Below are positions 5,279-63,131 of a stretch of DNA of 64,000 bases, piece by piece. Within the stretch, counting starts at the first letter, position 1; each line of letters begins with the position of its first letter. This DNA is from a virus, in IMG/VR virus record IMGVR_UViG_3300018422_000003, positions 6,090 to 70,089 of that record, one strand, 5' to 3'. The notes below the pieces were generated by a model. That model had not been told where the DNA came from and made no database searches. It saw only the letters and a list, made by a program, of their open reading frames with translations. A program made the position numbers and the translations under genes.

Positions 5279-5306
5279 GTTTTCGATAACGGGTGTTATG
5301 TCAACT
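5279..5306 (+). other. dif: dif-like XerC/XerD recombination site
   Basis: GTTTTCGATAA-CGGGTG-TTATGTCAACT: 11-6-11 layout with conserved ATAA/TTAT core; intergenic. Confidence 0.75.
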
Positions 5307-32057: not shown

Positions 32058-35000
32058 TTATCGGAGGGCCGGAAGGTACAGCGCCGCGCGGTTGGCCGGG
32101 CAGGCGACCGTCACGAAATACGCCGTGTCCTCGATCAGATCCGCGATCGATACCGAGCGGTTGCGGCTGCCGCCGCCGTCCGATATGCGTGTCCCGCTGC
32201 CCGGATCGGACGACGTCGAATACCAGACTTGGCAGGCCGCCGCGCCAGGCATGTCGTAACGAATGGTCGCCGCCGTTGGGGCCTGCGCCGAAATGCGGTG
32301 ATTGAAAGCCACGGCAAAGGCGGTATCGAGCGCGAGGAAATCGACGCCCGCATTCCGCTTGTCGGTAGCCGCCGCGAGAGCCGGAGCGCCGGGAGCGAGC
32401 CGGAAGTTGGCCGGGTCAACGGCAGAGCCGAGGCAGACCGATCCGCACTGCATCAGCGCCGCCGCGATCCGGGCGTTGGCCGTTGTGCCGCCGCTCAGAC
32501 AGGTAAACGACCCTGCCGGAAAGCCCGTCATCGCCGTATTGCAGTCCGATTGAGTCCAGGTATAGGTGCTGCTGGTGGACGCGTAATGCGCGTCGCTGTC
32601 GGTGTTTTTGACAGTCGGGATTACCACGTTTCCCGCCGTGGTCGCGTTCTTGTTTGCGCCGGCGAACTTGACGTATTGCCCGGTGAGCGAAGGCGTTGAG
32701 CCAAAGGCCTGCCAAGCGTTCTGGCCCACGATGCCGCCGCCGTTGTCGGTCGAGGCGGTGAAGAAATTATTGGTTACGCTCAGGCCTTCCCCGGTGCCAT
32801 AGATGAAGCTCAGCCATTCGCCTTGCTTGCCCCGGAAATCAATCGTCGTATTGTGATCGATCACGACATCCTCGGTTGTGAGGTTGAGCGCAACGGTATA
32901 GCCGCACAGCCCGCCGCCGACGTCAGCGGTCGGACTCGCGTCCCAGACCCGGTTGTCGAGCGCGTACAGCAGGTTGTTTCTGAAGACAATCCGTTTGGTG
33001 GGGCCCGCGCCAACACCGTCCGCATACGTGTCCTGCCCGTTGACATGAAAGACGCTGGCGCCGTTGCGGAAGATGTTATTCCGCACCATCACGTCAACGC
33101 CTTGGTTGCCGGTGTTGGTGGACGTTCCGCGCGGGCTGACCGCGATGAAAGGTCCACACGGTGTCCAGTCCGCCCAATTGCCGTCGTATAGGTTGCCTTC
33201 GATCACGGCGCGCTGAATCTGCTTGAACTCGGTTGCGTGCCGCTTGGGATAGTAGCGGCCGTTCGATGTGCTCGATCCGGTCCGGTAGGCCGGGTCGGAG
33301 TAAAAGGTGTTGCCGCGTATGGTGATGTCGGTAACGGGCGTTGCGCTGCTGCCCTCCTGCGCGAAGATGCTAATTCCGACAAGGTTTTCAAAGCGGTTGT
33401 TCTGGAACTTGACGTAAGAGGAATTCGTGAAATCGATGCCCGTCGTCGTGTGATGGTAATAGTTGTGGAGGGAGCCTTGAATAATGCCGTTGCGTACCGC
33501 GAGCCATGCATTGAAGTCCTTCACGAGACTATCGACGATGGCGCTATTGGTATTAGTTCCGGTGATTACCATTCCCGTAAGGAACCGCGTCGGCCATCCG
33601 CTGGAGCGGACCACGGAGCGGTCGAGAATCATGCGGCTGGTGTTGGCCGCAAAGGTCAGCAGGGGCGGTTCCATGCCGGGATCGAAGGTGACCGCGCCGC
33701 CGCTGACGTATGCGCCATTTCCGGCCGCGTCGTCGAGCTGCAGCGTATTCGGTCCGAGGACGGTGAAGGTATGCGCGCCGTTGGCCGCCGTGTTCCCGAG
33801 CACGCCATCGATTGAGATCGCCTCGCGGAATCGGGCCTCCCCGCAATCGGACGCGCACGTCTGAGCGTAGTTGAGCCCGGTCTGCATCCAGCGATTCGTG
33901 AGCAGCAGTCCCGAGGTACTGGTGGCGAGGATGCCGTCGAGGCCGGTGATCGGCGTATTCCGAAACTCCATCTGTGAGCGCCGCGATCCGTCCGCGATCG
34001 CACCCCAACTGCCGGCGAAGGTGAAGGTCGCCTCCACCCGCGGTGAGGTCACGGTCGCGGTAAACGATGTGATCTCCATCCACGGTTCAACGGGCAGGCC
34101 GTGCGGAGTCTCGGTCGTGATGACGATGGGCGTTGCGTTGGTCGCGCTGGTGATCCGGTGCGCGAGCGCCTGTGTCGCTTTGCCGCCGCCCGCATAGCAG
34201 GAGCTTGTGGCGCAGGCGATTGAGGAATTCTGATAGCTGAACTCCGTCGTATTGTGTACAGCGATGGGCGCGGTCAGATTCGGCCCTCGGCCGGGGAATC
34301 CGGTCACGCCGCTTACGGTCACCATTTGGTGCGTAATGAAGCCGTGCGGCGCGCTGGTGGTCATGCGTCCCGCGTCGGTTACCGCCGTGATCGTGAACTG
34401 GCGCGGCGTGTGATTGGCGACCGATTCCGACGTGAAATCGATCCCGACGAAGCGCCAGCCTGCGGTCGTATTCGTGTTGATAAAAACGCTGTGCGCGTTG
34501 CCGTCATTGAAGTTGTGCGGCCGGATGAGCTGCGCCATATTCGGCAGATCGGCCTCGGTCACGCGCGTGCCTTCGGGCGGCAGCAGAGCATGCGCGCTGG
34601 TTCTCACCACGCAAGTGCCCGCCCCGCTCTTGGCCGGGAGCGTAACCCGCTGCGCGCAGGACAGCCCGGCTGTAATGGTGACGGTATGATTCAGCGCCGT
34701 ATCGGCCGCGCCGCAGGCCGTGAGCTGCGTCTGTAGCTGGCCGCATGAGGTAACAGCGAAGTCCGATCCGTTGATGGTGGGATAAGCCGTGTTGACTTCC
34801 GCCGGCGCGGTCGGCGGTACCGGGTGCACTTCCGGCTGAGCCTCCAAGGTGACGGTGGCAACGTCATCCGAGCACGTATACCCGGTTCCTGGCGCGTCGC
34901 ACTCCCAGGTGGATGCATTCGAGACTGGCTTGAAGTAAACGGTCGAGCCAGGAACGGCGCTGAAGGCGCACCAGCGCCGCAACTGGCTATAGGCGACGGA

Positions 35001-35186
35001 TGTGATTGTCGCGGTCGAACTTCCCAGCGCCGATGTGGCGCCATAGGCGCAGTAGGAGGCTCCGCCGGTGGCGGTGATCTCCCACTTGGCATATACCGTT
35101 CCGTGCGAGACAGAGACTACAAGATTTGAGATCGTCTGAGCGAACGATACCGTCGCCAGCAGCAGCGTGAGAAGTAAGAGTTTCAT
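32058..35186 (-). CDS. Large secreted Cys-rich beta-helix protein
   Basis: MKLLLLTLLLATVSFA-Q signal; ITxAT...TTxxPHG repeats; parallel beta-helix repeats (ITIRGNTF, VIEGNLY, VRNNIF, IDHNT); 20 Cys. Confidence 0.8.
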   Translation of the reverse strand: MKLLLLTLLLATVSFAQTISNLVVSVSHGTVYAKWEITATGGASYCAYGATSALGSSTATITSVAYSQLRRWCAFSAVPGSTVYFKPVSNASTWECDAPGTGYTCSDDVATVTLEAQPEVHPVPPTAPAEVNTAYPTINGSDFAVTSCGQLQTQLTACGAADTALNHTVTITAGLSCAQRVTLPAKSGAGTCVVRTSAHALLPPEGTRVTEADLPNMAQLIRPHNFNDGNAHSVFINTNTTAGWRFVGIDFTSESVANHTPRQFTITAVTDAGRMTTSAPHGFITHQMVTVSGVTGFPGRGPNLTAPIAVHNTTEFSYQNSSIACATSSCYAGGGKATQALAHRITSATNATPIVITTETPHGLPVEPWMEITSFTATVTSPRVEATFTFAGSWGAIADGSRRSQMEFRNTPITGLDGILATSTSGLLLTNRWMQTGLNYAQTCASDCGEARFREAISIDGVLGNTAANGAHTFTVLGPNTLQLDDAAGNGAYVSGGAVTFDPGMEPPLLTFAANTSRMILDRSVVRSSGWPTRFLTGMVITGTNTNSAIVDSLVKDFNAWLAVRNGIIQGSLHNYYHHTTTGIDFTNSSYVKFQNNRFENLVGISIFAQEGSSATPVTDITIRGNTFYSDPAYRTGSSTSNGRYYPKRHATEFKQIQRAVIEGNLYDGNWADWTPCGPFIAVSPRGTSTNTGNQGVDVMVRNNIFRNGASVFHVNGQDTYADGVGAGPTKRIVFRNNLLYALDNRVWDASPTADVGGGLCGYTVALNLTTEDVVIDHNTTIDFRGKQGEWLSFIYGTGEGLSVTNNFFTASTDNGGGIVGQNAWQAFGSTPSLTGQYVKFAGANKNATTAGNVVIPTVKNTDSDAHYASTSSTYTWTQSDCNTAMTGFPAGSFTCLSGGTTANARIAAALMQCGSVCLGSAVDPANFRLAPGAPALAAATDKRNAGVDFLALDTAFAVAFNHRISAQAPTAATIRYDMPGAAACQVWYSTSSDPGSGTRISDGGGSRNRSVSIADLIEDTAYFVTVACPANRAALYLPALR

Positions 35187-35193
35187 GGATTGG

Positions 35194-36483
35194 TTAGCGA
35201 TACGAGATGCCCGTAGCCTCAAAAGCAAAGCGCAGCAGCTTCATCGTGTGGCTGCCCGCATCGCAGGAATAGGTCTGCCATAAGAAGTACATGGAGCCGG
35301 TTGGGAGCGAGGACAACGGGACAGGCGTCGACCACGATCCGCCGTTGACGCGGTAGCGCGCGTTGATTGTGCCCGCGACCGACGATTCAAATTCGACCGT
35401 CATGATGTTGCTTAGAGCAAAGGCCGTCGCGGTTGCCGTCAGCACGGGAGTACCGGCCGTGCGGACTTCCCACTGCCATGCGGTGTCGGAGGCGGTCTCG
35501 GTGCAGGCGTTGTTGCTGATCGCTCGCAGGCCGATAAAGTTAGCGGGCGTTGTGGTGAGCACGTCCGAAAATCCGACGCGAAAGCCGTACTGCACCGTGA
35601 AGAATTCGTCGGTGCCAAAGATGAACTGAGCCCGCCAGCCTGCATGCGTGCTGAGATCTTTGATGGATACCCGCGAGGCTGAGAGCGATAGCGAAGCGCG
35701 TCCGTTGATGCCCGAGGCGGCGAGCGATACGCCTGTGCCTTCGGCCCATGCGCCGGTCGGTGTGGTGCCGTCCGATCCGCCGGCAGTCCCGCTGACCGAG
35801 GTCTTCCATCCGAGTTGACCGAAGCCGTTCACGCCGGCCGTATTCGAGCCGCCCGGGAATTCGTCAACCAGCCGAAGAATACTCGCGTCGAACGGATCAA
35901 ATTCGGCCGGTGGCGTCGGTCCTTGCGCTTCCCAGCCTGCCGCCGTGCAGATATAGAGTTTTTGTCCCGCTGAGCCGCTGCGGTATACATACACGTCGTC
36001 GTACTCGCTCGATTCATTGCAAGCGCCTGCGGCCGGGGCCGAAGTGCCGGATGGCGGCTTGAATGCGCCTGTGTAATCGTTGCGCGCGGACCATGCGTTC
36101 GGCTGGGCGAGCCAGCCTACATATCCGTCAACGAGAGAAATTTTCGGAAGGGTGGATCCGGTTGCATAGACGACTGAGATCGCGCCGTTGTCGCCGCCGA
36201 TAAATTTAACCTGCTTCCAGGCGCCGTCGATGCAGCGGTATTCGTCGGTGCCGTCGAGGATGTCCTCGGTACGGACCGCTTCTCCGGTCGCGCAGGAGCC
36301 GGGGAGCGCTGAGCTGAGCACGACCTTCCACGGAATCGAGGCGGTAGAGTTGGCGGCGCTGAAGACGGTCGTGATGTTTGAGACGTCCGTGCCCTCGCCG
36401 CCGCCGGTGGACGGGGGAGGGAAGGACTGAGCCGCCGCGCTGAGCGCGAGCAGAAAGAGAGAGAGGGTCTGTTTAGAATTCAT
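35194..36483 (-). CDS. Secreted fibre/lectin-like protein
   Basis: MNSKQTLSLFLLALSAAA-Q signal; two P-x2-C...Y-x-C...W modules; C-terminal beta-sandwich; 6 Cys. Confidence 0.75.
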   Translation of the reverse strand: MNSKQTLSLFLLALSAAAQSFPPPSTGGGEGTDVSNITTVFSAANSTASIPWKVVLSSALPGSCATGEAVRTEDILDGTDEYRCIDGAWKQVKFIGGDNGAISVVYATGSTLPKISLVDGYVGWLAQPNAWSARNDYTGAFKPPSGTSAPAAGACNESSEYDDVYVYRSGSAGQKLYICTAAGWEAQGPTPPAEFDPFDASILRLVDEFPGGSNTAGVNGFGQLGWKTSVSGTAGGSDGTTPTGAWAEGTGVSLAASGINGRASLSLSASRVSIKDLSTHAGWRAQFIFGTDEFFTVQYGFRVGFSDVLTTTPANFIGLRAISNNACTETASDTAWQWEVRTAGTPVLTATATAFALSNIMTVEFESSVAGTINARYRVNGGSWSTPVPLSSLPTGSMYFLWQTYSCDAGSHTMKLLRFAFEATGISYR

Positions 36484-36915: not shown

Positions 36916-37569
36916 TTAGCTTGCCAGATCTTTGACCAGACTCGAGACGATCTCTTTGACCTTGGCGAGCACGACGGCGCGGTTGGCCGGGCTGAGCCCG
37001 TACCAGGGGTCGATCCGCTGATTCCCCTTTGCTTTCTTGTGCTCTTCCTCGCGCCGGAAGCCGATATGGACGCTCGACGGGTTTTGGCTGACGATCCCGA
37101 TACTGTTGAGCATCCGGCCGCTTTCCTCAAGATCCCGGTAGCCGGGCTTGCCCTTGGCGCGCTTATACTCCGAGCGATTGTTATAACGTACGCTCTTCTT
37201 GGAGTTGGTGATCTTCGCCTTCACCGCGTCAGGCTTGGCGACCGCGCCCGCCGCCTTTTGCTCCTTGCCCTTGTGATGAAAGGTGGCCAGTCCCGCGCGC
37301 TTGATTTTGAGGATGTCTGAGGCGGTCAGGACCTCGCGGCCTCGCAGGTTTGTCTTGGTGCGGCCCTTTCCGGTCAGCGGTATATAGACCGGGCTGGCCG
37401 AGTACGGCTTGGCGGATTGATCGAGCAGGTTTCGCCCGGCTCGCGCGCGGGCGGTGATCTCATGCACCGCCACGCCCGCGAGATAGGTGATGTTGGAAGG
37501 CGCAAGAACCGGGGCCTTGAACCGGAGCAGCTTATCGGCATACATGAAAACGGAGGTGCCGTAAGCCAT
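36916..37569 (-). CDS. Virion morphogenesis protein (Mu gpG/HK97 gp10-like)
   Basis: Basic; LEESGRMLNSI...KAKGNQ...PWYGLS; AGGAG SD. Confidence 0.7.
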   Translation of the reverse strand: MAYGTSVFMYADKLLRFKAPVLAPSNITYLAGVAVHEITARARAGRNLLDQSAKPYSASPVYIPLTGKGRTKTNLRGREVLTASDILKIKRAGLATFHHKGKEQKAAGAVAKPDAVKAKITNSKKSVRYNNRSEYKRAKGKPGYRDLEESGRMLNSIGIVSQNPSSVHIGFRREEEHKKAKGNQRIDPWYGLSPANRAVVLAKVKEIVSSLVKDLAS

Positions 37570-37587: not shown

Positions 37588-37857
37588 TTACTGCCGCGGC
37601 TGCGCCGCTACGAGAGCCGAGCCGTCCTCGGTCAGCGTATAGCCGCCGGGGATCTGGTCGAGCTTCCGTTCGCGGACAACGTGATTCAAAAAGAACGACA
37701 GGAAGGCCTGCCCCTGACTGATCTGCTCGATTACGGGCTTGATCGTCCTGATTTGCTCCTCGGTCAGCTCATGCCGGGAGGAGGCAGCGGCGGTCGTATT
37801 CTCGGGCGCGAAAGCTGGTGGCTTCGCGGGTTTGGATCGATTGATAGGGTGTTGCAA
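37588..37857 (-). CDS. Hypothetical protein
   Basis: GAGGA SD, TTG start. Confidence 0.5.
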   Translation of the reverse strand: MQHPINRSKPAKPPAFAPENTTAAASSRHELTEEQIRTIKPVIEQISQGQAFLSFFLNHVVRERKLDQIPGGYTLTEDGSALVAAQPRQ

Positions 37858-38130
37858 TGTTTGGGGTTTCCTCGCGGGGTACTTCGTGCAAGGAGGCCGG
37901 GTGTTTTATCCGGGGAGAAAGGTACGCCTGCAGGTTGCGGAGGAAGACGGCCTCATTGGCCGCATGCCTCCATTCGGTCTTGCCGCGCCGCTCCCGCTTC
38001 TTCCGGTTGTGACACTGCCTGCAATACGGATCTTTACCCACGGCCGGGCGGCCTTTGCAGCTTGCGCACTCGTTGGTTAGTTTTCTGGGCCGTCCCACGC
38101 CGCAACGTCGCGCAAGGGAGACCCGGTGTT

Positions 38131-38583
38131 TTATGACTCGTTCGCCATTTCGCGGAAGTACTCGATAAACAGCTTGTCGGCTTCGCTCCACTGTTTGGAC
38201 GCCCGTACCGCCGCGCCGTCTTTCCAGGCCGCCAGCTCTTCATTCGTAGCGAGGAACTCGACCGTGAGCCGGTGGCCGTCATCGGTATACAGCCGCAAGT
38301 CGTCGTCGCGCTTTTCCCAAGTGCGGATGAGCTTCAAGTGGACATGCTGCTGGCCGGTCGATTCCGGCCAGCCCAGCTCCCGCCAGGCGACCCAAAAATC
38401 GAGGCCGTCCGTGCCCGCGTGAGGCAGCACGCGGACGACGCGCCACGCGTCCACAACCCACAGATCCATGCCTTTGTCGTCGGGCGCGTCGCCGCTGCTG
38501 GGCATGTTCACGAATGCCCGCGAACCCTCGCGGTTGAACTTCTCAAACAGCTCGGCCGTAATGGCTTCAACAGTGGCTTCCAC
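38131..38583 (-). CDS. Acidic 150-aa protein, candidate MuF-toxin immunity protein
   Basis: First gene downstream of extended MuF. Confidence 0.55.
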   Translation of the reverse strand: MEATVEAITAELFEKFNREGSRAFVNMPSSGDAPDDKGMDLWVVDAWRVVRVLPHAGTDGLDFWVAWRELGWPESTGQQHVHLKLIRTWEKRDDDLRLYTDDGHRLTVEFLATNEELAAWKDGAAVRASKQWSEADKLFIEYFREMANES

Positions 38584-38638
38584 CTATCCAGTAAAGCAGG
38601 CGGTGGCGCGAAAGTGTTCCTCGCTTGCCCAAAGCTTT

Positions 38639-41600
38639 TTAGTACCTTGAGCCGGCCTGTATGACTTTTTCAATCGGACGGCCATCGGGGAACTTCGTGA
38701 TTCCGTGCTTGCGGAATACGGCGAGGACCTCTTGGCGCTCATGCTCGTCCAGCGTTTTGACGTGATCGATTTCGTGCAGCAGAGACAGCGTGTTTTTCAA
38801 AATGGTCTCATTACCGGAATGCAGCGAGTACTTCTTAAATTCAGAGATCGTAGAACCGCGCTCTGTCGACACGGTGTCGCCGGTCACGCGGCCGTACTTA
38901 TCGCCGTCGTAGCTGATCGCGTCCATGCGGCGCAGGTTGCGTACTTTGAAATAAATCTGCGACTTCGTGTTAGCGGCTTTTTGAATACGAGTGAAGACGT
39001 AGCTGCCGCCGCCGCTTTTAATATCGGCGGTCGCTGAGCCTGCGCCCTTGCGTGTGATTCCGGTGCGGAGCTTTTCGGTGGTCGATACCATCGAGGCATT
39101 GTTGGGCAGAGCCACGTCGAAAAATTCGTTTAGCTTGGCGGACGCATTGCCGAACTTGATGTCATGAACGAGACGGTACTCGCCCAGTTGTTCGTTGAGC
39201 TGTTGCTCCGTTAGATCAAAACGGTACTGATGACGGTTGCCTGCCTGCTCGCCGTGTTTATCCCATCGCTGCTCGTACTGACCCTCGGGCTTATATTCGG
39301 GCAGCTTGGTCACATCCGGAACGCCGAGGCGGCGCGACCAATACGCGCGCATTTCAACCACGCGCGCCGCGTCGGACGTGTTCTCCGTCTTGTGTTTAGC
39401 CACCAGCTCCTTCCATTCGGCGGACGTGTGCGCATTGGCGACGTACGTCGCCTTTTGTAAATACAGCAGCTCCTCGTCCGTCTTCGTCGCCGCCTTCGTG
39501 TTCAGCCCGGTCTCCGATAGCCTTTTGAGCGCGTGCTCGACCTGCTTGGGATCGACCGCGCCGGGGACCATTACCTCCAGCGTTCCGTGGAACGTGAATG
39601 ACTTCGTGTTTGTGTCCCCCTTGCCCTCGCTGTACGGAATGTAGCGAACGCGAACGCCATCCTTCCAGGTGACGTTATACTGCTGCAGCCCGGCGCCCGC
39701 GCCTGTATACACCGAGCTGAGCGACACCTGCTCCTCAGCGACGATTATGCTGCCGTTTTTGATTTCCTTGGAATCAACCCGAGCCCCGGTTTGCTTGACG
39801 GTGAACTGCTTTTCTCCCGTTTGTATGGCGCCTTTATTCGCGGCTTGATCCTCCAGCTTCTTCAGCCGGGCGCGCTCTTTCGTGACCGCGCTCGTCCAGT
39901 CTGTGAATTCCTTTTTGAGCTGTTTCACCTGCTCGATCGACATCTGCCCGCCCCATCCAAAGGCCCACGCCTTGGAATCATCGGGCGTGCTCAGCGACAC
40001 GTTACCGACTCCGTTCACAAGATTGCTGAAGATCTGCTTGGACACGGGCGCGTGCGGGATTGGGACCAGCTCCACGTCGGACTTCGATGATGCCTTGTTG
40101 CTGTCGTCGTCATCGTCATCATTTTTAGCCACACCCGGATCGAGGCCGAGGCCGCGCAGGAAATCGTCCTGCGCTTCAAGCCGCAGCTTCATCCGCAGCA
40201 TTGTGCGGTCGCCCGCTTTGGTTTTTTCCTGCCACACGAGAACGTTCTGATCCTCGATCTGATCCTTATCGATAGCCAGCGTTTTGCCTTGCCAGCCGTT
40301 AGCTTTGGCCGTCGCGACATGCGCCAGGTTGCGCTCGCCAAGGTGAGCCAGATCGCCTGTCTCCGCCTCTTCCTCGGGCGCCGGATCATCCAGCACAACG
40401 CCCTTTTTCTTGGCGCGCTGTGCCCGCGTGTAAGCGTTGCGGGCGAGCCGCTTGGCCTCCGCCTCATCCTCGACGTTCAATACCGTAGCGGCCGCCGTTT
40501 GCGCGGCGGCGGCAGCTACATCGGCCGCCTTCTGAGCTGACGAGGCGGCCTCGGTAACATCCGATTTCTCGTCCTCGTCGATTTCCTTCTGCAGCGATTT
40601 CAGCTCCGATAAAGGCAGCCCATCGAGGAGGCCCTGCTCGTATTCGGACAAACCGTTGTAGCCGAGCGCCTCATGCTTTTTAACGATTTCTTTCTGCTCG
40701 TGTTTTTCCTGCTCGGTCGGCGCGAGATGCGGCTGCTTCTTCTGAGCGCTCGTCGGGGTGAGCGCGACCGTATCCGCGTCGTTAAGGAATGTGCTTTTGA
40801 AATCCGCGCCCGGGGTAACGAGGTGCGTCAGCGTGCCGTCCGCTTTGCTCCAGACGTAACCGCCCTTGACGCTGTCCCATGTCGCGGTCCAATTCGTATT
40901 CTTGTTTTGATACTTCGCCGCGAGGCCGGGCGGAGGTTCATCGGCGGCCTTTTTCGTCGCCGCCTTCGGAGGCTTCGGCGCCGCCGGCATGATTGGCGTC
41001 TGCGCGACCATGGCTTTGTTCTGCGAGGCCTTGGTCGTGCCGACGACCGACTTCTTCATCTGATCGGGAGACGTGACGGTATCGGTCGCCAGCGTGCCGT
41101 CAGGCTTGACCCAGACGTAACCGCCTTTGCCGCCGTCCCACTTTGCCGACCATTCGCTGTACTGGTTCTTGTAGACGGCCGCCATTCCGGGCGGTACCGG
41201 AGCCGCGTTGGCTTCGGCGGCGGCCTTTGCCTCGGCCGCCAGCTTTTCGGCGGCAGCGAGCTTGGCTTCGTATTCCGCTTTTTCGGCTGCCGCCTTTACT
41301 TTGGCCGCAGCTTCCTCGTTAGCTTTTTGGAGCGCCAGCGCATCCGCCGCTTTCTGATTGGCGGCGGCAATCGCATCCGCATGTGCCTTTTTCGCCGCCG
41401 CCATCTTGGCCGGATCGAAGCTGAAATGCGGGTCGCTGGTCAGCTTGCGATAGTACGTTTCGAAATCCGAGCGCAGGCTGTTCTTGCGCGCGATCGCCGC
41501 CGCCTTGAATTTGGCTGCGGCAGCCGGGCCGCCCGGATGATTCGCCGCGTAGCCTTCGACCGCCTTCAGGTAATCCGCGTCGCTGATCTTTTCAGCGGCC

Positions 41601-43153
41601 TCGATCGCGGGCAGGGAATCGGCCGGATTGAATTGGACCTTGCCCGCCTTGATGGCCTTGCCAAGCGTGTTGTAGAGCGGCTCCTGCTCACCGAAGCTTT
41701 TATTCGGGTGATAGTCGACGCTGAGCTGATCGTTGCCGATGTGCTTGTACGCCTGCGCTTTGTCGATCCCGTAGATTGCGCCCGATTTGGTCCGCAGGAA
41801 CTGGCCGGGGTGGCCGTCATGATTGCTGATCAGCCAATCGAGAACGTGCTCGCGCTGGATCTGCTGAATCTCAAACGCCGACAACGATTCCATCGGTACG
41901 GGCTTGTTCTGCCCACCGTTCGTGAAGTCGATTTTCTTTGCAAGATCCGGAACGAATTTCTGAGCGGATCCGAACTTCCCGCCGAGCGTCATCGTGTGAA
42001 CTTCGACGGCGGTTTGAGGGTTGACCAGGCGCGCTACATTAGCCGCCGCCTCCTCCGCGTACGGAATGATTTTCTTTGACGCATCGACGGGTTTGAACAG
42101 CCAGTCGTTGCCCGCCGGATCGGTCCAGATCTCCTTGGCGTGAGCGCCGCCGAGGCCGGGGTTAGCGGACTTGAGCGCCCATGGTTTCGGCGCAGGCGGC
42201 TTGGGCGCTTCCGGAGGCGCGGGTGGTACGTAAGTGCCGGGTCGCTTCTCAAAGCCCAACGCTTCGCGCGTGGCGGCCATAGCGACCGCCTGCGGCATCT
42301 TCCCGCTGGCGCCGGTATCGGCAGCCTTCGGCGCGGGCATGTCCGCTGGCCACGGCATCCAGACGTGACGGCAATTCCAGCCGCCGCCGTAGCGCAGCGC
42401 CGGGAGCAATGGCGTTTTTGAAAGCTGCTTCAGCTCCGCATCCATCGCGTGAATATCTTTGAGCGTGTACAGCTTGTCGATTTTCGCGAGGCAGAACGGG
42501 CGGTTCTTAATGTCCTTCGGCCCGCGATAGGTGAAGTTTTTGATTCCGGCGGTTTGCCAGATCTTCATCGACACGGTCCGGTCGTAAACAACCAGCGCCG
42601 TGTCCGCGTACGTAGCCGCGTAGTTCTTCAGCTTGAGGTCGAGCGTTGCCGCAATCTTGTCGATGAGCGGCGCCCGCGCGGTACCGAGCAGCGCGTTCTG
42701 GATGACTGCCTGCCCGACCGATTTCACGGCCTCTGTGCCGAGGCCGGACAGGTAATCGTAATCGATATTCTTGAGCTGCTTTAGGGCGTTGCGATCGAGC
42801 GGCGCGAGCCGTTCGTCGGGAAGCTTCAGCGCCTTCACGGTGGCGATCGCATTCTCGACCGATTGATCGAAGCTGCCGGTCAGCTCTTTTACCAGCTCGG
42901 GATAGCCTTCGCTGTTGAGCTGCTTTTGTAGCTCAGCCTGGAGCTGCAGCAGCGATTGCGCCTGCGCCGCGACCTTCGGTGTCAGCTCGCCGGCGGAAAG
43001 GATTTCGATGACGCGCGAGCGCATGGCAGCGACCGTCTTCTTCAACCCGGCTTCGAACACGGCGAGCGCCTTGGCCTGCGAGGTAATCGAGGCGTTGGAG
43101 ATTTCGGTAACCGCGCCAAGCTGGCGCTCCGGTTGATTGTTATAGCGCGGCAT
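38639..43153 (-). CDS. MuF (SPP1 gp7-like) head protein with kinase-like and ART-like extensions
   Basis: YRGPKD..NRPFC...GGWNCRH (MuF); WLFKP/AEEAA/DWLISNHDGH/IDKAQ (HipA/PI3K-like); C-terminal H...VST...YVFTR...NETIL. Confidence 0.85.
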   Translation of the reverse strand: MPRYNNQPERQLGAVTEISNASITSQAKALAVFEAGLKKTVAAMRSRVIEILSAGELTPKVAAQAQSLLQLQAELQKQLNSEGYPELVKELTGSFDQSVENAIATVKALKLPDERLAPLDRNALKQLKNIDYDYLSGLGTEAVKSVGQAVIQNALLGTARAPLIDKIAATLDLKLKNYAATYADTALVVYDRTVSMKIWQTAGIKNFTYRGPKDIKNRPFCLAKIDKLYTLKDIHAMDAELKQLSKTPLLPALRYGGGWNCRHVWMPWPADMPAPKAADTGASGKMPQAVAMAATREALGFEKRPGTYVPPAPPEAPKPPAPKPWALKSANPGLGGAHAKEIWTDPAGNDWLFKPVDASKKIIPYAEEAAANVARLVNPQTAVEVHTMTLGGKFGSAQKFVPDLAKKIDFTNGGQNKPVPMESLSAFEIQQIQREHVLDWLISNHDGHPGQFLRTKSGAIYGIDKAQAYKHIGNDQLSVDYHPNKSFGEQEPLYNTLGKAIKAGKVQFNPADSLPAIEAAEKISDADYLKAVEGYAANHPGGPAAAAKFKAAAIARKNSLRSDFETYYRKLTSDPHFSFDPAKMAAAKKAHADAIAAANQKAADALALQKANEEAAAKVKAAAEKAEYEAKLAAAEKLAAEAKAAAEANAAPVPPGMAAVYKNQYSEWSAKWDGGKGGYVWVKPDGTLATDTVTSPDQMKKSVVGTTKASQNKAMVAQTPIMPAAPKPPKAATKKAADEPPPGLAAKYQNKNTNWTATWDSVKGGYVWSKADGTLTHLVTPGADFKSTFLNDADTVALTPTSAQKKQPHLAPTEQEKHEQKEIVKKHEALGYNGLSEYEQGLLDGLPLSELKSLQKEIDEDEKSDVTEAASSAQKAADVAAAAAQTAAATVLNVEDEAEAKRLARNAYTRAQRAKKKGVVLDDPAPEEEAETGDLAHLGERNLAHVATAKANGWQGKTLAIDKDQIEDQNVLVWQEKTKAGDRTMLRMKLRLEAQDDFLRGLGLDPGVAKNDDDDDDSNKASSKSDVELVPIPHAPVSKQIFSNLVNGVGNVSLSTPDDSKAWAFGWGGQMSIEQVKQLKKEFTDWTSAVTKERARLKKLEDQAANKGAIQTGEKQFTVKQTGARVDSKEIKNGSIIVAEEQVSLSSVYTGAGAGLQQYNVTWKDGVRVRYIPYSEGKGDTNTKSFTFHGTLEVMVPGAVDPKQVEHALKRLSETGLNTKAATKTDEELLYLQKATYVANAHTSAEWKELVAKHKTENTSDAARVVEMRAYWSRRLGVPDVTKLPEYKPEGQYEQRWDKHGEQAGNRHQYRFDLTEQQLNEQLGEYRLVHDIKFGNASAKLNEFFDVALPNNASMVSTTEKLRTGITRKGAGSATADIKSGGGSYVFTRIQKAANTKSQIYFKVRNLRRMDAISYDGDKYGRVTGDTVSTERGSTISEFKKYSLHSGNETILKNTLSLLHEIDHVKTLDEHERQEVLAVFRKHGITKFPDGRPIEKVIQAGSRY

Positions 43154-43155
43154 TC

Positions 43156-43545
43156 TTAGGAGGCCCGCTTTGCGCGGACGAGCGCTACGCAGGCTTCACT
43201 GATTGCCTCGATCGCCTGCTCCTGCGCCGTATCCTCGGCTGAGTCAGGGTCGACGCCCAGCGGCGCGAGGTGCAAATGACAAAGCTCGTGTACGATATCC
43301 AGCTCCATGTCCTGAGCGCCTTTGAAGCCGGAGCGCCGGTAATCCCACGGCCGCATCAGCCGGATCGTCGCGGTCTTGCGCAGCAGATTCCAATCGATCT
43401 TGGCCTGGACTTTCGCCGGCATGTCCCGCTTGCTGGAGATGACGACCTCGACGCGCCAATCCCGCAGGCGCAGCACGCCCTGATACCAGGAGCACATCGC
43501 AGCCGCCTCGGCGGCATCATAGATAACCTCGCCCGCTGCAGCCAT
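43156..43545 (-). CDS. Zinc metallopeptidase-like protein (HExxH)
   Basis: DIVHELCHLHL, downstream EQA. Confidence 0.7.
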   Translation of the reverse strand: MAAAGEVIYDAAEAAAMCSWYQGVLRLRDWRVEVVISSKRDMPAKVQAKIDWNLLRKTATIRLMRPWDYRRSGFKGAQDMELDIVHELCHLHLAPLGVDPDSAEDTAQEQAIEAISEACVALVRAKRAS

Positions 43546-43551: not shown

Positions 43552-45072
43552 TTACTCTTCTTCTTCGGCGCCGGGGCCGCCGGGCGCTGGCATTTCAAGC
43601 GCCGGATCTTTCATCGCCGCAATGTCGGCGGTGATTATGGCTTTGCGATCTTCAGGCAGCGAGGTGAGCAGCTTGAATACGGCGCGCTCCATCAGCTCCT
43701 GCCGCGCGCTCAGCGGCGCTCCCGCGGATTGCAGCAGGATCATTGCGTCGATGAGGTCCTTGGCGGTCGATAGATCGTACTTACGCGCGTACTGGACGTT
43801 GCCCTTCCATTCCGAGCCGAGGTATAGCCCGGCGAAATAGAGGATCTGCTTTACTGCGTCCTCCTCCCATCCGGCCATGCCTGCCAGGATCTTCTCGGCT
43901 TCGCTGAAGTCCCATTCCTTCGATACGCCGGACTGCGTGTCGTTCGCGCCGCCGCTGGTTTGGAGCGCCTTGCCCTGGATGCCCATGTGGCGCAGCGCCA
44001 GCGAGAACATCGTTCCGAAGGCTTTCCAGCCGGATTCAAACGGGCCGCTGTCGGGGGATACGTAGAAAAACTCTTCCTGCTCCTCGGGGTTGAGGTGCAT
44101 GATGGTTGCCGCGCCGACGCCCGCATCGCCCGGTGACTTGAGGCTTTTGAATACGGGGACCGGAAACATTGAGCTTTCGAGGTTCTCGTCGAAGCTCGAA
44201 ACCCAATTGGTCAGCAGCTGCGCAAACTTGGCCGCGTCGCGCAAAAGCGAGTCGCCGCGGAAAGCGCCGAGGCGTACGTGATACATCGGCACGACCGGAA
44301 TTGCGCCGACGCTGTTGCGCCCGGTGCTTACGCCGATCCAGTGGCCTTCGACCTTCTCAAACACGATCCATTTCTCGAGAGACCAGTACCGGAGCTGCTC
44401 GGTGCAGGCGCTCGAATTCTCATCGAGCACACTGCCCTGGGACGGGGCCTCGCGCCGGAACAGAATCTCGATGGGCCTGCCGCGCTCGTCGAGCCGCCAG
44501 TTGAGCATGTCCTCACGCGGAATATGCACGAGGTACGGCCGCAGGTTTTGTTCGTGCTGATCGCGCCGGGTGATGACGGGCCGCTGCGGATCCGCCTGCG
44601 GCATGTCGATCAGGACGAAGTCGCAGCCGGTGACGGTTTTCGATGTTCGAACGGAGCTGAGGAATTGCGCGAGCGATTGGCCCTGCAGATCCGCGTCATC
44701 GAGGAACGCCGCGAAGGCGTCTCCGTTGGGCGTGATCATTGCGTTCTCGGGCTTGCCGACCGTCGCTGCGTAAAAGTCCACAATCGGGCCGACCAGATTC
44801 ACATACACAGCCCGCGCCAGCCGGTGGCAGTACTTGTCGTGGCGCTCCATCGGGTACTGCCAGAGGTAGTTCTGCGTCCCGGTGTACACGCCCGAAAGGC
44901 CGGGATCGGTCTTCGGTGAGAGCATCGCCGACGATCCGGCTGCCGCCGCCGGGAGAGGATTCCGGGTGCTCGGATAGAGCGGCCCGCCGTCGTAGTGATC
45001 CCGATAAAATTTCCAGAGCGCGTTTCCGCTCGTATATACGGGGTGCCTCTGCTCTAACGCTTTGTTATCCAT
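43552..45072 (-). CDS. Portal protein (SPP1/DUF4055-like)
   Basis: HPxY, YxxRLxRAxY, CDFVLIDMP, RPYLV, LNW, IPVVP, SGVSK motifs; upstream of MuF. Confidence 0.9.
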   Translation of the reverse strand: MDNKALEQRHPVYTSGNALWKFYRDHYDGGPLYPSTRNPLPAAAAGSSAMLSPKTDPGLSGVYTGTQNYLWQYPMERHDKYCHRLARAVYVNLVGPIVDFYAATVGKPENAMITPNGDAFAAFLDDADLQGQSLAQFLSSVRTSKTVTGCDFVLIDMPQADPQRPVITRRDQHEQNLRPYLVHIPREDMLNWRLDERGRPIEILFRREAPSQGSVLDENSSACTEQLRYWSLEKWIVFEKVEGHWIGVSTGRNSVGAIPVVPMYHVRLGAFRGDSLLRDAAKFAQLLTNWVSSFDENLESSMFPVPVFKSLKSPGDAGVGAATIMHLNPEEQEEFFYVSPDSGPFESGWKAFGTMFSLALRHMGIQGKALQTSGGANDTQSGVSKEWDFSEAEKILAGMAGWEEDAVKQILYFAGLYLGSEWKGNVQYARKYDLSTAKDLIDAMILLQSAGAPLSARQELMERAVFKLLTSLPEDRKAIITADIAAMKDPALEMPAPGGPGAEEEE

Positions 45073-45198: not shown

Positions 45199-45438
45199 AT
45201 GACAACCACACGAGCCGATAGGCGGGCGAGCCTGACCGCCGACGAAGCCGTTAAGATGTGGGCCATTGCCGGAGGCGAAGAGCAGAAGTTTCGGGATATA
45301 TTCGAGCTGCTCGTTACGATTCAGCTCGCGCGCATGCCTCTACAGACAGCGACGCCTCGCTCACCTCTTAATCCCTACGGCTCGGAGGGCAATCCGGTGG
45401 ATGTCAGCGACCGGCTGCGCGGGAATGAGAAACCTTAA
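45199..45438 (+). CDS. Small antisense ORF between portal and endolysin
   Basis: C-terminal 20 aa nearly identical to N-terminus of the 55365 ORF. Confidence 0.5.
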   Translation: MTTTRADRRASLTADEAVKMWAIAGGEEQKFRDIFELLVTIQLARMPLQTATPRSPLNPYGSEGNPVDVSDRLRGNEKP

Positions 45439-45959
45439 CCCTCGGTAATGAACTTCAGCGCCTCGGCTGCGGGCGATCCGCGGAACAGAGCCGCCTCCGC
45501 CGAGCGGCGTTTGGAGAGGCCCGCAAAGACGGCTGTCTCGCCAGTATCCGGGTGCTTCCCCTTGTTCCAAAACTTAAATTGAGCCGCCGCGCCCTCGTAA
45601 TCGGCGTGGTTGAGCTTGCGCAGCAGCGTACACTCGATCGTGTTCCACCGTGACTTTCGGATATTGTGAACAAATGAGACAAGAGCGTCGAATTCGTTCT
45701 GCGTCAAAGGTACCGTCACCTTCCGGCGGACATAAGCAGCCGCCTCCGCGACGTCCACGCGTAGCAGCCCCTCGGCCTGCGCGGGTGTGATCCGCTGGCC
45801 GGGTGAGACCATCGCTTTGGTCGTGCCGAAGCCGATCGTCAAAATCCCGGCCGGGCAACGGTACGCTTCGAGCCGGGGCTGACCGCCCTCGGCCTCCGCG
45901 TGGCGGATGATTACCAGCGCATCCTCGGTCGGCCTCAAATCAGTAACAGGGTTTCTCAT
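45435..45959 (-). CDS. Endolysin, GH24 lysozyme
   Basis: E...AYRCPAGILTIGFGTT, LTQNEFDALVSF, GLSKRRSAE. Confidence 0.92.
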   Translation of the reverse strand: MRNPVTDLRPTEDALVIIRHAEAEGGQPRLEAYRCPAGILTIGFGTTKAMVSPGQRITPAQAEGLLRVDVAEAAAYVRRKVTVPLTQNEFDALVSFVHNIRKSRWNTIECTLLRKLNHADYEGAAAQFKFWNKGKHPDTGETAVFAGLSKRRSAEAALFRGSPAAEALKFITEG

Positions 45960-46246
45960 CAGCCCATCGGCTCCAAAATCTCAAGAACGAACGTCCGCTT
46001 GCCTGACTTTCGTCCGGCGCTCGTGACGACGCTATTGCCGATCAAATACTTCTCGCCCGGCTCAGCGGCCGCCGTCCCGATCCATACCGTCGCGGTCGTA
46101 GAGGTCTTGGTGCTCACGGACGGTTCTGTGAGCGGCGAGGGAACGGTCCATGTGCTGGTGGCGATCGATTCGCCCTCTTGTAGCCAGCCGCTCCAATCGC
46201 GCGTGTAATCAAGCTCCGCCAAAGTTGTCGATTGAAAAATTTTCAT
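45959..46246 (-). CDS. Fibre adaptor-like small structural protein
   Basis: LDYTRDWSGWL..GESIATSTW...TATVW...TSAGR pattern. Confidence 0.7.
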   Translation of the reverse strand: MKIFQSTTLAELDYTRDWSGWLQEGESIATSTWTVPSPLTEPSVSTKTSTTATVWIGTAAAEPGEKYLIGNSVVTSAGRKSGKRTFVLEILEPMG

Positions 46247-48675: not shown

Positions 48676-48715
48676 AAGACGGCCCGCTTCTCACGAGGCG
48701 GGCCGTTTTGTTTTT
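48676..48715 (+). terminator. Intrinsic terminator
   Basis: ACGGCCCGC...GCGGGCCGTTTTGTTTTT. Confidence 0.8.
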
Positions 48716-50045
48716 ATCTGTAGGAATTCTCGCGCTGGAAGCCCTGTACGCGATACTCTTTCCAAATCAAATAACCAAGCGCGTCACTAGGGTGCGACAA
48801 GGTCATGTTGTCGTGGGTCGTGTCCTTGTCGATCGTATGGCCGGGATCTTTCTTATCCCAAATACAGCGCCGGAAATCGATTCGCAGGCGCTTACATTTT
48901 TTGTCGATCCACATGCGCTGCAGGCCTGCCGCCGATTGCATCATGGCGTTAACGCTGGTGACGCGATCGCGTACGAGCGGGTTGGCCGCGAGGATATTCC
49001 AGTACAGCTTATAGGCGGGCTTGGCCCTAAAATAATCCTTGATCAGCGCATAGTCCGCGCGGCCTGACGTGGAGCCGTGCTCGCCGGCAGCGTCGCCATA
49101 CATTTGGATGTCGAGCGGCCGCCCGTTTACTTTCCTCCACTGATCGAGATAGCCGCCCGGCTCTTCGAGCGTCGCCGTGAACCGCTGGCAGGCGTCGATG
49201 GTGGTTGCCCCGCGGATGATCTGTTCATCCAGCACGAACACGTTGCCGCCGTAATGCTGCGTGAGCACCCAGCACATGGGATCGATGTTGAAATCCATGC
49301 ATAGGCTGAGCGGTACCGCCGGATTAAATTTCAGGTCCTGCTCGTGGCGCTTCTCATCCCACGAATAATAGACCGCGCCGGAATGCATGTCGAGGTATTC
49401 GCCGAGCACCTCCTGACGGAAGAACCGCTCGTCGTAGGAAGCCTTCAGCCGGTCGTAAAAATCGGGGTTCTTCGAAAGCACCGCGATGTTTTCGCCAGGC
49501 GCGGCCAGGATGGCGTCGTAGCCGGGTTTCTTCTCGGGACCGATGAACCGCTCGTAAACGAAATCGAAGCCGTTGGGGGTCCATACTCCGAAGCCGCACA
49601 GCTCGGTGGCCAGCGGATCGCGGAGGCGGCCCTCCAATCGCAGCCACGCGGCCTCGTCCGTGAAGCTCAGCTCATCGACGCCAAACCACGCGAGGTTCGT
49701 ACCGCGCAGGCGCTCGTAGTCCTTCAGCGATCGCATGAGGATTCTGGAGCCGAGCCGTTTCAGCGTTATCGCCATTTCCTGCTTGTGGAAGGTATACGGT
49801 ATGCGCCGGTCCTCCAGCTCATCGAGCAGCGTGCGGAGCGTGACGTCGCGAAGCATCGGGAAGGTAGGAGCGCCGAGCAGGCCGGTCCGGCCGCGATTGA
49901 TCGCCGCCATGCGGAGGGCCTTGCCGACCAAGGCGTACGTTTTGCCTGATCCGATGGGGCCGGAGAAGCCGACAAATCGCGACCGGGAATCGTAGAAACG
50001 GCGCTGCGACGGGAGAACGTGGGAGGTGAAAACGACACGCTGCAT
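48714..50045 (-). CDS. terL: Terminase large subunit
   Basis: Walker A GPIGSGKT, Walker B WFGVDE, TPNG, RNase H motifs MDFN, YGDAAG, HPSDALGY. Confidence 0.95.
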   Translation of the reverse strand: MQRVVFTSHVLPSQRRFYDSRSRFVGFSGPIGSGKTYALVGKALRMAAINRGRTGLLGAPTFPMLRDVTLRTLLDELEDRRIPYTFHKQEMAITLKRLGSRILMRSLKDYERLRGTNLAWFGVDELSFTDEAAWLRLEGRLRDPLATELCGFGVWTPNGFDFVYERFIGPEKKPGYDAILAAPGENIAVLSKNPDFYDRLKASYDERFFRQEVLGEYLDMHSGAVYYSWDEKRHEQDLKFNPAVPLSLCMDFNIDPMCWVLTQHYGGNVFVLDEQIIRGATTIDACQRFTATLEEPGGYLDQWRKVNGRPLDIQMYGDAAGEHGSTSGRADYALIKDYFRAKPAYKLYWNILAANPLVRDRVTSVNAMMQSAAGLQRMWIDKKCKRLRIDFRRCIWDKKDPGHTIDKDTTHDNMTLSHPSDALGYLIWKEYRVQGFQRENSYR

Positions 50046-60295: not shown

Positions 60296-60949
60296 TCATT
60301 TCGCGCTCGGCACAACGGCGACGCCAAAGGTCACGTCGAAGCGGAAAATCATCTTGCGGCTGGCGAGGTCGTAGCGGACGCAGCCGTCCGCAGCGATGTC
60401 GATGAACTTTGCGCTGGCGAGGTAATACGGCGACACCCAGCCAAAGAGGGTACCGTACGGGTCCTCGCCGCGAAAACCGTCGCGCAACTCACGGCCAGGC
60501 GCAAACACGAGAACCCGTTCGCCCGAGCCGATGCTCTTGTTTACAGCCGATTGCATGGCCTCGACAAACGTCGCAATCATAGGCGCCAGGAAGCTGTGCG
60601 ATCGCGCGTCCGGGCTGGCGATGAATAGCTCGACCTCGGACTCACTGAGCGCCGCCGAGGCCGTGCGCGTGCGTAACTGCGCCGCACCCGCATCCTTCTG
60701 GCCTGCCGGCACAAGGACGGTATAGCCGTCGTGGGCGACCTGATCATTAAGCTTCAGGGTTACCGCCATATTGCGGGCCGCCTGACGCAGCGCCTTGGCA
60801 ATGCTGAGCGTTGCCTCGCCAAGCGCGGTATCGAGCGCCGGGCGGTCTATCTTCACATTCAGCGTGCCGGCGGTCAGCGTGTCAGCCTGGATCGGCTTGC
60901 CGCATTCCGGCGACAGCGCGGGCTGGATGAATCCATACTCATAACTCAT
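60296..60949 (-). CDS. Hypothetical protein, possible truncated capsid paralogue
   Basis: C-terminal RYDLASRKMIFRFDVTFGVAVVP resembles capsid C-terminus; abuts/overlaps terS 3' end. Confidence 0.6.
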   Translation of the reverse strand: MSYEYGFIQPALSPECGKPIQADTLTAGTLNVKIDRPALDTALGEATLSIAKALRQAARNMAVTLKLNDQVAHDGYTVLVPAGQKDAGAAQLRTRTASAALSESEVELFIASPDARSHSFLAPMIATFVEAMQSAVNKSIGSGERVLVFAPGRELRDGFRGEDPYGTLFGWVSPYYLASAKFIDIAADGCVRYDLASRKMIFRFDVTFGVAVVPSAK

Positions 60950-61593
60950 TTAGGGGGTTGATAATCCTTTTCTTCGAATTCGTAAACTGCGCCGTTTTCC
61001 ATTTCGGCCTTGTCGTCTTCTTCGTCGCCGCGGATTGCCGCGAGCGCCAAGTCGCTTGCGCTCAGCGCGATCTTGCGGACCGTGTCGAACGTCCACTTGG
61101 CCGGGATCAGCTCAGTAGCGCGGCCGCCTTTCAAGTTGGTCGAGCCGCACCTCGGGCATTCCGGGAATTCGAGGTTCTTGCCGTCGCCCGCCCAATTGCA
61201 GCCGCCGCACACCAGCTCGCCTTTGATCCGCTGCCGGGTGATGGGCGTCTTGAGCATCAGCTCCGCTTTCCCGAGCAGGCTTTCGGCGAGCGCGAACCGC
61301 CGCTCCCGAAGCTTTTCCTCGCGCTCGGCCCAGATCGCAGCCTTTGCCTCGATCAGCCGCCGGCGCTCGGCGCGCTCACGTTCGACGAGGTCGGTATCGT
61401 ATGAGGCCGCTCGGTCGACCCAACGGTGGGCGGCAGACCAACGACCCATGAGCGTTGCACTTTTGCCCAACTTTTGACCAACTCCGGCGAGGGAACGGGC
61501 AGCTCCGAGCAGGCAGTATTCCGTAAAGGCTTCATAGGCGCGGGCGCTCTCCCCGGGCTGTCGATCCCGGGCGTGCTCAGCTCCACCGAGCAC
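60946..61593 (-). CDS. terS: Terminase small subunit-like HTH protein
   Basis: GESARAYEAF..Y...RSLAGVGQKLGKS...RWSAAHRWVDRAASYD; coiled coil; CxxC...CxxC insert; follows MTases. Confidence 0.7.
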   Translation of the reverse strand: MLGGAEHARDRQPGESARAYEAFTEYCLLGAARSLAGVGQKLGKSATLMGRWSAAHRWVDRAASYDTDLVERERAERRRLIEAKAAIWAEREEKLRERRFALAESLLGKAELMLKTPITRQRIKGELVCGGCNWAGDGKNLEFPECPRCGSTNLKGGRATELIPAKWTFDTVRKIALSASDLALAAIRGDEEDDKAEMENGAVYEFEEKDYQPPK

Positions 61594-61766
61594 TTGCCCT
61601 CGGTAGCAAATAAGTTTTCATCAGCGGTCCAACACGCACGCCAAAGCCACGCCTAAACATTTCGCGGGGTTCGCACGATATACCTCGTCCTGGGTTTGCA
61701 GGCGGGGCTTTAGGGGCTTGCGGGCGTATCTCCTTACCCGTCAATCGTTCGCAACGTCAGGCGTGT

Positions 61767-63000: not shown

Positions 63001-63131
63001 ACCTTTTTTTGTTTCGGGGGAGGAGGAGCTTGCTTGGTATCGAGCCGGAAGCCAATCACGAGCAGGCGGTCGGACACTTCCGCCAGGCGCGCCAGGCTAA
63101 GCCGCTTATCCGGCGAGCGCAATGTCGCCAT
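62997..63131 (-). CDS. Small basic protein
   Basis: Overlaps both flanking MTase genes. Confidence 0.4.
   Translation of the reverse strand: MATLRSPDKRLSLARLAEVSDRLLVIGFRLDTKQAPPPPKQKKV

Follow-up and report, generated by a model that had tools for sequence, protein, structure and literature searches.

Enzymes that are packaged in the phage head and enter the cell with the DNA are the earliest-acting tools of a phage. To our knowledge very few of them have been studied, with T4 Alt and the N4 virion RNA polymerase as the main examples. The polyvalent proteins described by Iyer et al. (2017, PMC5512222; 2022, PMC9503650) are large multidomain proteins of the head module in which MuF serves as a packaging anchor and an ADP-ribosyltransferase (ART) and kinase payload is predicted to be injected with the DNA. 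The ARTs described there belong to the H-Y-D (Tox-ART-HYD2), Alt/VIP2 and N4-ART types, and their kinases are of the Ser/Thr/Tyr type lacking a C-lobe or are zeta-toxins. Similarly, MuF toxins (PMC5576092) and T4 Alt are head-associated ARTs whose delivery with the DNA is thought to occur (MuF toxins) or has been shown (Alt), and the small open reading frame (ORF) downstream of MuF toxin genes has been proposed to be an immunity gene. Here we describe a gene for a 1504-amino-acid (aa) protein (P0001; 38639..43153, minus strand) and its 150-aa downstream partner (P0002; 38131..38583, minus strand) in a window of 64,000 nucleotides, bases 6090-70089 of the 70,089-bp IMG/VR record IMGVR_UViG_3300018422_000003, which represents an uncultured phage and is rated complete by CheckV.

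The large protein resembles the polyvalent proteins in that at least two effector-type domains are joined in one probably virion-associated polypeptide; here a predicted MuF domain, a kinase-like domain and an ART-like domain are encoded by one ORF, with a variable spacer between the kinase and a conserved C-terminal block. In contrast to the polyvalent proteins, the ART resembles DarT and contains an invariant Glu, the kinase belongs to the type shared by type II phosphatidylinositol 4-kinases (PI4KII), CtkA and HipA, and the kinase, a small subdomain that we call nsub, the ART and a dedicated partner form a fixed cassette, although the supplements to those papers may list the family. The concept of delivery is known (Iyer 2017/2022, Jamet 2017), and the domain families found here are not described in the available text of those reports. 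Our preferred interpretation, to which we assign a probability of roughly 0.6, is that the 1504-aa product is a polyvalent, MuF-anchored head protein that delivers a kinase and a DarT-like ART and whose partner restrains or escorts the ART.

A database search with the 1504-aa protein retrieved 33 proteins of 961-2610 aa at E <= 1e-3, the query included, and we therefore regard the gene as real and not as a chance ORF. BLAST mapping onto these relatives delimited three shared modules at aa 10-272, aa ~320-585 and aa ~920-1500. When 31 relatives were compared with Pfam, PF04233 (MuF) scored above the cut-off in 17, Phage_min_cap2 in two and VG15 in three, and six of the 31 carried an ADPrib_exo_Tox domain at the C-terminus in place of the C-terminal module (C module) of the window protein. 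For the window pair itself, the sole hints from family searches were TIGR03843 (E 0.013, over the catalytic loop) and CTD3 (E 0.12), and searches of PDB sequences and the ESM Atlas gave nothing usable. A reading of the letters alone (the sequence-only reading) had proposed that this ORF is a MuF head protein carrying a putative kinase and a putative ART, with an immunity candidate in the 150-aa ORF that begins 55 bases downstream. All of the motifs that it listed lie where it had placed them.

The N-terminal module (aa 1-275; 42329..43153, minus strand) is predicted to be a divergent MuF-like head domain with its core at aa 110-270 and with GGWNCRH at its end (aa 257-263; 42365-42385). PF04233 does not match the 1504-aa protein even at E <= 1, yet a profile of the first 290 residues of the window protein and six close relatives (7 sequences) aligned with the MuF regions of the 17 PF04233-positive relatives in hhalign (probability 95.6%, E 1.1e-8, 143 columns), with PFC...GGWNCRH falling onto their CPxC...NCRC. 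Only one small ORF of 129 aa separates the gene from the portal gene (43552..45072, minus strand; phrog_145, E 5.3e-51), which is a head and packaging position; we therefore place the 1504-aa gene in the head module. Taken together, the profile alignment and the gene order indicate a divergent MuF domain at the N-terminus, encoded where MuF is usually found, as the sequence-only reading had assumed.

The second module (aa 331-585; 41399..42163, minus strand) is predicted to adopt an atypical protein-kinase-like fold. AlphaFold modelled aa 305-600 from a 32-sequence alignment with a predicted local distance difference test score (pLDDT) of 93.9 and a predicted template modelling score (pTM) of 0.88. 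Foldseek returned 254 PDB matches at E <= 1e-3 for this model and, among the matches listed, all were kinases. The highest VIA-align Z scores were 16.0 to PI4KIIbeta (4wtv; root-mean-square deviation (rmsd) 3.6, 214 residues aligned) and 16.0 to CtkA (3akk), followed by PI4KIIalpha (15.4), MavQ (13.0), Fam20 (~12) and HipA (11.8). A search of 48,161 chains that was independent of Foldseek produced a similar ranking, with Z 15.4 to 4hnd and a kinase fold in every one of the best 50 rows. Across the structure searches Z ranged from 15.4 to 16.0 for PI4KII and from 14.7 to 16.0 for CtkA. A PDB profile search with the kinase-family alignment (A1) was swamped by low-complexity Ala/Lys matches such as TolA and was set aside.

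The motifs of this domain are GGAHAK (335-340), WLFKP (351-355), AEEAA (366-370), LDWLISNHDGHPGQ (438-451) and GIDKAQ (462-467), which together span 41753-42151, and its key residues are K354, D/E367, D446, H448, Q451, D464 and Q467. Among the 32 kinase relatives D446, D464 and Q467 are kept in all, K354 in 31 and H448 in 30. The roles of these residues (ATP-binding Lys, catalytic Asp, metal-binding Asn/Gln and DFG-type Asp) were assigned by motif position and not by superposition. The sequence-only reading had called this a HipA/PI3-4K-like kinase with Gln in place of the usual catalytic-loop Asn; the confident fold prediction agrees, and the column at position 451 holds Q in 21, N in 10 and H in one of the 32 relatives. 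The domain has in common with type II PI 4-kinases, CtkA of H. pylori, MavQ of Legionella and HipA a bilobal fold (Z 11.8-16), the Lys in FKP, the loop N-H-D-x-H-x-x-[QN] and I-D-K-x-Q replacing DFG. It differs from them in its low identity (9-16%), in the Gln found in two thirds of relatives and in being embedded in a head protein. HipA_C (PF07804) and PI3_PI4_kinase (PF00454) in Pfam do not match the window domain, and in the relatives they match only below the cut-off (HipA_C in 9/32, best E 3e-4; PI3_PI4_kinase in 4/32, best E 0.02). On the strength of the model and its structural neighbours, we conclude that aa 331-585 represent a predicted kinase fold of the PI4KII/CtkA/HipA type with conserved catalytic residues.

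The same kinase family is also fused to PF03496 (ADPrib_exo_Tox) ARTs in other MuF/VG15 head proteins, in eight of the 32 members of alignment A1 (P0020, P0021, P0027, P0029, P0031, P0034, P0037 and P0040). The pairing of this kinase with an ART therefore arose with two unrelated ART clades. Within the family that carries the C module, a kinase-profile match at E <= 1e-3 was present in 100 of 141 long proteins when the HMMER filters were switched off, and the best kinase match lay no more than 250 residues before nsub in 133 of the 138 proteins with any match. An apparent absence of the kinase from half of the family was an artefact of the HMMER filters and was discarded.

The final 184 residues (aa 1321-1504; 38642..39193, minus strand; isoelectric point (pI) 9.5) are predicted to form an ART fold that is closest to DarT. 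This domain contains YRLVH (1326-1330), MVST (1355-1358), YVFTR (1385-1389) and GNETIL (1447-1452), and its candidate active site consists of H1330, R1363, Y1385 and E1449. AlphaFold modelled aa 905-1504 from a 57-sequence alignment with pLDDT 85.8 and pTM 0.81, and the top four Foldseek rows for this model were Thermus DarT at a probability of 0.97-0.99. When VIA-align was run over the Foldseek list, seven DarT entries reached Z 8.1-9.2 over model residues 409-600 (rmsd 3.1-4.0, 151-158 residues aligned), and these were the only ones of 996 chains with Z >= 8. Similarly, in the search that was independent of Foldseek only four of 48,161 chains reached Z >= 8 and all four were DarT; the ARTs ranked next were SopF (6.4, the same value as on the Foldseek list), Tpt1 (5.6) and CteC (5.0). 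The DarT-like H...E transferase suggested from the letters is thus matched in structure by DarT only at this level, and its H and E are conserved.

The conservation of the candidate site is high among 283 unique modules, where E1449 is present in all, R1363 in 278, Y1385 in 277 (with F in five) and H1330 in 271; S1373, D1377, G1381, D1411 and G1421 are invariant. The key residues of DarT are H13, R51, Y71 and E160 (PMC9967889). Counted from the His, the R, Y and E lie 33, 55 and 119 residues away in the window ART and 38, 58 and 147 residues away in DarT, and the range of the structural alignment (model residue 417 on DarT residue 4) puts H1330 near H13. In a local hhalign alignment of 43 columns, the N-E1449-T segment with the strand and helix that follow it falls on the invariant 'AE' segment of DarT. 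DarT of the DarTG system (7omv-7omy, 8baq, 7yk3; PF14487) is thus the closest solved fold, with a similar order and spacing of H, R, Y and E, and it shares with the window ART a Y-x3-R motif and a basic charge. In contrast to DarT, the window ART ends a 1504-aa head protein, is preceded by ~260 additional conserved residues and lacks membership at the sequence level: Pfam DarT (PF14487) did not match it, and a PDB sequence search with a 14-sequence ART-only profile (A5) found no match. Alt and EFV belong to another ART clade, the R-S-E type. We conclude that aa 1321-1504 are a predicted DarT-like ART fold with a plausible H-R-Y-E site, outside the DarT family as judged by sequence. A comparison with predicted viral structures ranked uncharacterised giant-virus proteins, iridovirus 422L and baculovirus ORF30/32 highest for this region; an 'ORF28 family' found in DNA viruses of arthropods has been related to DarT (Iyer et al. 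2022, PMC9503650).

Between the kinase and the ART lie three further regions. The variable spacer (aa 586-935; 40349..41398, minus strand) begins with an Ala/Lys-rich helix, in which A or K make up 60% of residues 586-660, and continues with two Trp-rich copies of ~48 aa at aa 653-700 and aa 740-787. The 28-aa module whose duplication had been noted lies within these copies at aa 661-688 (41090-41173) and aa 748-775 (40829-40912). The spacer, including the Trp-rich module, found no homologue among 187 collected proteins or the ORFs of 160 related loci, and within that sequence comparison it appears to be unique to the window protein. The small beta-rich subdomain nsub (~aa 934-1009; 40127..40352, minus strand) was delimited by the BLAST map, a hidden Markov model (HMM) and model strands E53-86; it always precedes the C module, its HMM matches nearly all C-module proteins, and a poly-Asp linker modelled with low confidence follows it. 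The middle of the C module (aa 1117-1320; 39194..39805, minus strand) contains beta strands and a helical bundle and carries the invariant R1311 and D1313. Structure searches found no convincing fold match for this part; a TTM/CYTH-like fold for aa 980-1220 reached a Z of just 4-5.4 and was not adopted, and the helical-bundle matches (Vpr/Vpx, Z 5-6) had the appearance of generic helix packing.

The partner is an acidic protein (pI 4.76) of an unnamed family whose other members have 156-170 aa. Its conservation was examined in 160 related loci, 80 viral and 80 genomic, of which the genomic set came from a search with a 12-row alignment; a scan for related loci that used one protein as query had found no relative. 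In 157 of the 160 loci the partner HMM matches the reading frame that immediately follows the C module. Of the three loci without a match, L049 is a diverged case and the other two leave 0 and 125 bases for the gene. In 47 of the 80 viral loci the partner start overlaps the stop of the large gene by four bases, as in most relatives, whereas in the window a spacer of 55 bases (38584..38638, minus strand) separates the two. Furthermore, five whole bacterial genomes hold eight C modules and eight partners, always 3-15 bases apart and none solitary. The portal, the 129-aa ORF and the other neighbours in the window have no homologues in the related loci; therefore the pairing follows the large gene and not the synteny of the head module. 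The downstream ORF that had been put forward as an immunity candidate is in this respect a strictly conserved partner.

The partner family comprises 130 clusters, all annotated as 'hypothetical' or unnamed, and neither Pfam, NCBIfam nor a PDB-sequence search with the partner profile (A3) matched it. Where DarT has a DarG macrodomain or NADAR hydrolase as its neighbour, the window ART is followed by a small acidic protein of a family without a name. The pI of the family is 4.6-5.3 as opposed to 9.5 for the ART domain. A putative inhibitor ('immunity') role of the partner is plausible. Mirror-tree comparison with partial correlations was tried as a way to find the domain that contacts the partner and singled out no domain.

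Several findings weigh against our preferred interpretation. Pfam, PHROGs and NCBIfam recognise none of the three domains of the 1504-aa protein, and we found no virion proteomics, expression or activity data for any member of the cassette. The kinase is not universal, as Pseudanabaena phage Pan1 gp15 consists of MuF and the C module and leaves no room for a kinase. For the ART, Foldseek found nothing at E <= 1e-3 with the C-terminal model, the structural match is moderate (Z 8-9, identity 7-12%), and hhalign against 19 genome-derived PF14487 sequences gave a probability of only 5.9%. The H-R-Y-E mapping derives from spacing and from the ends of alignment ranges, not from residue-level superposition, and conservation is just as high for the alternative set R1311/S1373/E1449. 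In the window the partner lacks translational coupling to the large gene and starts 55 bases past its stop with GTG, directly after an in-frame TAG and with a weak ribosome-binding site. Additionally, neither a macrodomain (DarG) nor a NADAR domain was found in the partner, unlike in the antidotes of DarT, and partner distances co-vary with those of all domains (r 0.87-0.94), most strongly with MuF (0.94).

Some of these findings would also fit a protein in which the kinase and ART folds are catalytically silent and serve as the scaffold of an internal head or pilot protein that binds DNA or membrane and aids delivery, with the downstream gene encoding an assembly chaperone or a further head component. 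The lack of a family-level sequence match to any active enzyme, the moderate Z scores of the ART, the fact that partner distances track MuF best and the place of the partner within the head gene cluster are all in line with such a role. We nevertheless regard both parts of this explanation as very unlikely, since the residues at catalytic positions are the most conserved ones in both domains (D446 and D464 in 32/32 and K354 in 31/32 kinases; E1449 in 283/283 and R1363 in 278/283 ARTs), a pattern that is typical of active enzymes, and since there are MuF/VG15 proteins in which this kinase family is joined to genuine PF03496 ARTs.

The distribution of the cassette bears on two further explanations. 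The C-terminal 404 aa matched 741 representative clusters (50% identity level) at E <= 1e-3 and 517 at E <= 1e-10, and almost all of the matches lie at the extreme end of proteins of 1000-3000 aa. The N-terminal part of these proteins varies (MuF, PF06152 or none detected), as does the spacer. Bacteria whose prophages carry cassette members belong to the Acidobacteriota, Armatimonadota, Desulfobacterota, Nitrospirota, Planctomycetota, Verrucomicrobiota and Proteobacteria, and one member comes from a cyanophage. Among 50,697 records of deposited phages only one carries the C module, that of Pseudanabaena phage Pan1 (ON968452.1), whose gp15 is annotated as 'head morphogenesis protein' and consists of MuF, nsub and the C module with ~200 residues from MuF to nsub. 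The 110-aa Pan1 gp16 follows gp15 after 34 bases (L162, 4120-7270), and no relation to the partner family was detected for it (E 0.087). A 9.1-Mb Bryobacterales assembly (G004, which holds loci L137, L157 and L160) contains four complete cassettes of large protein and partner, three of them within ~115 kb.

The sequence-only reading had started from MuF proteins that carry C-terminal toxins followed by immunity genes. A predicted C-terminal effector and a small downstream ORF are present here, but the variable tip of a polymorphic toxin is not; the C-terminus is instead a conserved module of hundreds of phages. If the protein were nonetheless a MuF polymorphic toxin with a cognate immunity protein, it would serve in competition among bacteria or phages, in superinfection exclusion or in kin discrimination. 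The architecture of a MuF N-terminus, an enzymatic C-terminus and an immediate small downstream ORF fits this explanation, many relatives are prophages across many bacterial phyla, and small ORFs are reported downstream of 89.4% of MuF toxin genes, with ARTs among the toxins (PMC5576092). However, the tip is not polymorphic and the same module is combined with the same partner family throughout. MuF toxins are reported only in temperate phages, and the downstream ORFs counted in that study are under 150 aa (PMC5576092), whereas neither a tyrosine integrase nor a serine recombinase was found in our virus record and the partner has 150 aa (156-170 in relatives). The window protein thus differs from MuF toxins and T4 Alt in its conserved C-terminus, its two enzymes and its phage record without an integrase, and we consider a polymorphic toxin distinctly unlikely.

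The same conservation could reflect a core phage function, in which the enzymes, while still in the producing cell or within the capsid, would modify the DNA ends or the head and portal proteins of the phage itself and the partner would time their activity. Genome protection or control of ejection could be the purpose of such modification. The C module is far more conserved than the tip of a polymorphic toxin (741 clusters, C-terminal end), its catalytic-type residues are invariant, SPP1 gp7 is located at the portal (PMC5576092) and DarT-type enzymes act on DNA (PMC9967889). We judge this explanation unlikely, because no NAD+ or ATP is present inside the capsid, the module occurs in only 1/50,697 phage records and is thus dispensable for most phages, and a dedicated, tightly coupled partner better fits the containment of a dangerous activity.

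Our preferred interpretation of a delivered, MuF-anchored protein suggests the following course of events. Homology and gene position suggest that the MuF-like N-terminus would tether the protein, in a single copy or a few, to the portal within the capsid, the site at which SPP1 gp7 sits (PMC5576092). The conserved block of kinase, nsub and ART would exit the capsid with the DNA and act in the newly infected cell, where the kinase would use ATP to phosphorylate a host component and the ART would use NAD+ to ADP-ribosylate its target. We tentatively favour nucleic acid as that target, at odds a little short of even, over protein, which is possible at somewhat lower odds; the preference is made because the closest folds are DNA-modifying DarTs and because the module is conserved across many host phyla. 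The acidic partner would most likely bind the basic ART module and either silence it in the cell that makes the phage or act as its chaperone on the way into the capsid.

A more speculative version, which we put at low odds, is that kinase, ART and partner form one three-part machine and not two independent weapons. It is equally doubtful, as a part of this version, that the ART attaches ADP-ribose to nucleic acid of the host or of the incoming phage and that the kinase phosphorylates the adduct or the target. The odds are just as low that this phosphorylation blocks removal by host macrodomain or NADAR hydrolases, and likewise that the acidic partner mimics nucleic acid and fills the basic substrate groove until packaging. 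The PI4K-like fold phosphorylates hydroxyl groups of sugars and lipids. A joint machine would fit with the data because the kinase family is recurrently paired with a PF03496 ART (8/32) and because a kinase-like match directly precedes the C module in most members.

The surroundings of the pair were also examined. On the minus strand the gene order is large terminase (TerL; 48714-50045), endolysin, Gp77-like adaptor, portal, 129-aa ORF and 1504-aa ORF, followed by the 150-aa ORF, several small ORFs, a 1056-aa beta-helix protein, scaffold, a P22-like coat protein and tail genes including the tape measure. The endolysin and the Gp77-like fibre-tail adaptor (45435-46246, minus strand) lie between terminase and portal, within the packaging module. 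At a distance of ~11 kb from the large terminase lies a small-terminase-like gene (phrog_6299), with two DNA methyltransferase genes after it (60946-63894, minus strand). The 1056-aa protein (32058-35228, minus strand) combines an E1_FCCH-like domain with a right-handed beta helix and is encoded after the MuF region and before the scaffold and coat genes, an unusual site for a spike- or fibre-like protein.

The 129-aa ORF between portal and MuF gene (43156-43545, minus strand) contains an HExxH motif (HELCH). It has no family match and no homologue in the 160 related loci, and an HExxH ORF at the portal/MuF interval was seen in only 1/115 related loci. The ORF might encode a small metallopeptidase that processes the 1504-aa protein; among the domains of polyvalent proteins, a metallopeptidase (MPTase) has been named as the top hub (Iyer et al. 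2017, PMC5512222). On the other side of the pair, a putative gene for a basic protein of 140 aa (37769-38191, minus strand) shares 61 bases with the 3' end of the partner gene and carries a zinc-ribbon-like CxxC...CxxC pattern; a family search with it gave no match. A 217-aa ORF (36916-37569, minus strand) has a weak NCBIfam match to an OspF-type phosphothreonine lyase (E 0.014, far below the cut-off) and a homologue with 38% identity in L049 (tblastn, 4983-5573), the only related locus that shares the MuF N-terminus type of the window protein.

A literature search found no experimental study of the cassette, although such a search cannot prove that none exists. The cassette occurs in hundreds of sequence clusters, and its interest stems mainly from this wide spread, for which Pan1 gp15/gp16 provides a cultured entry point. 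If true, the PI4KII/CtkA/HipA group would gain a phage branch with this kinase, and the partner family would represent a type of ART inhibitor not seen before. Should the ART modify DNA as DarT does, these phages would turn a bacterial anti-phage chemistry against the host.

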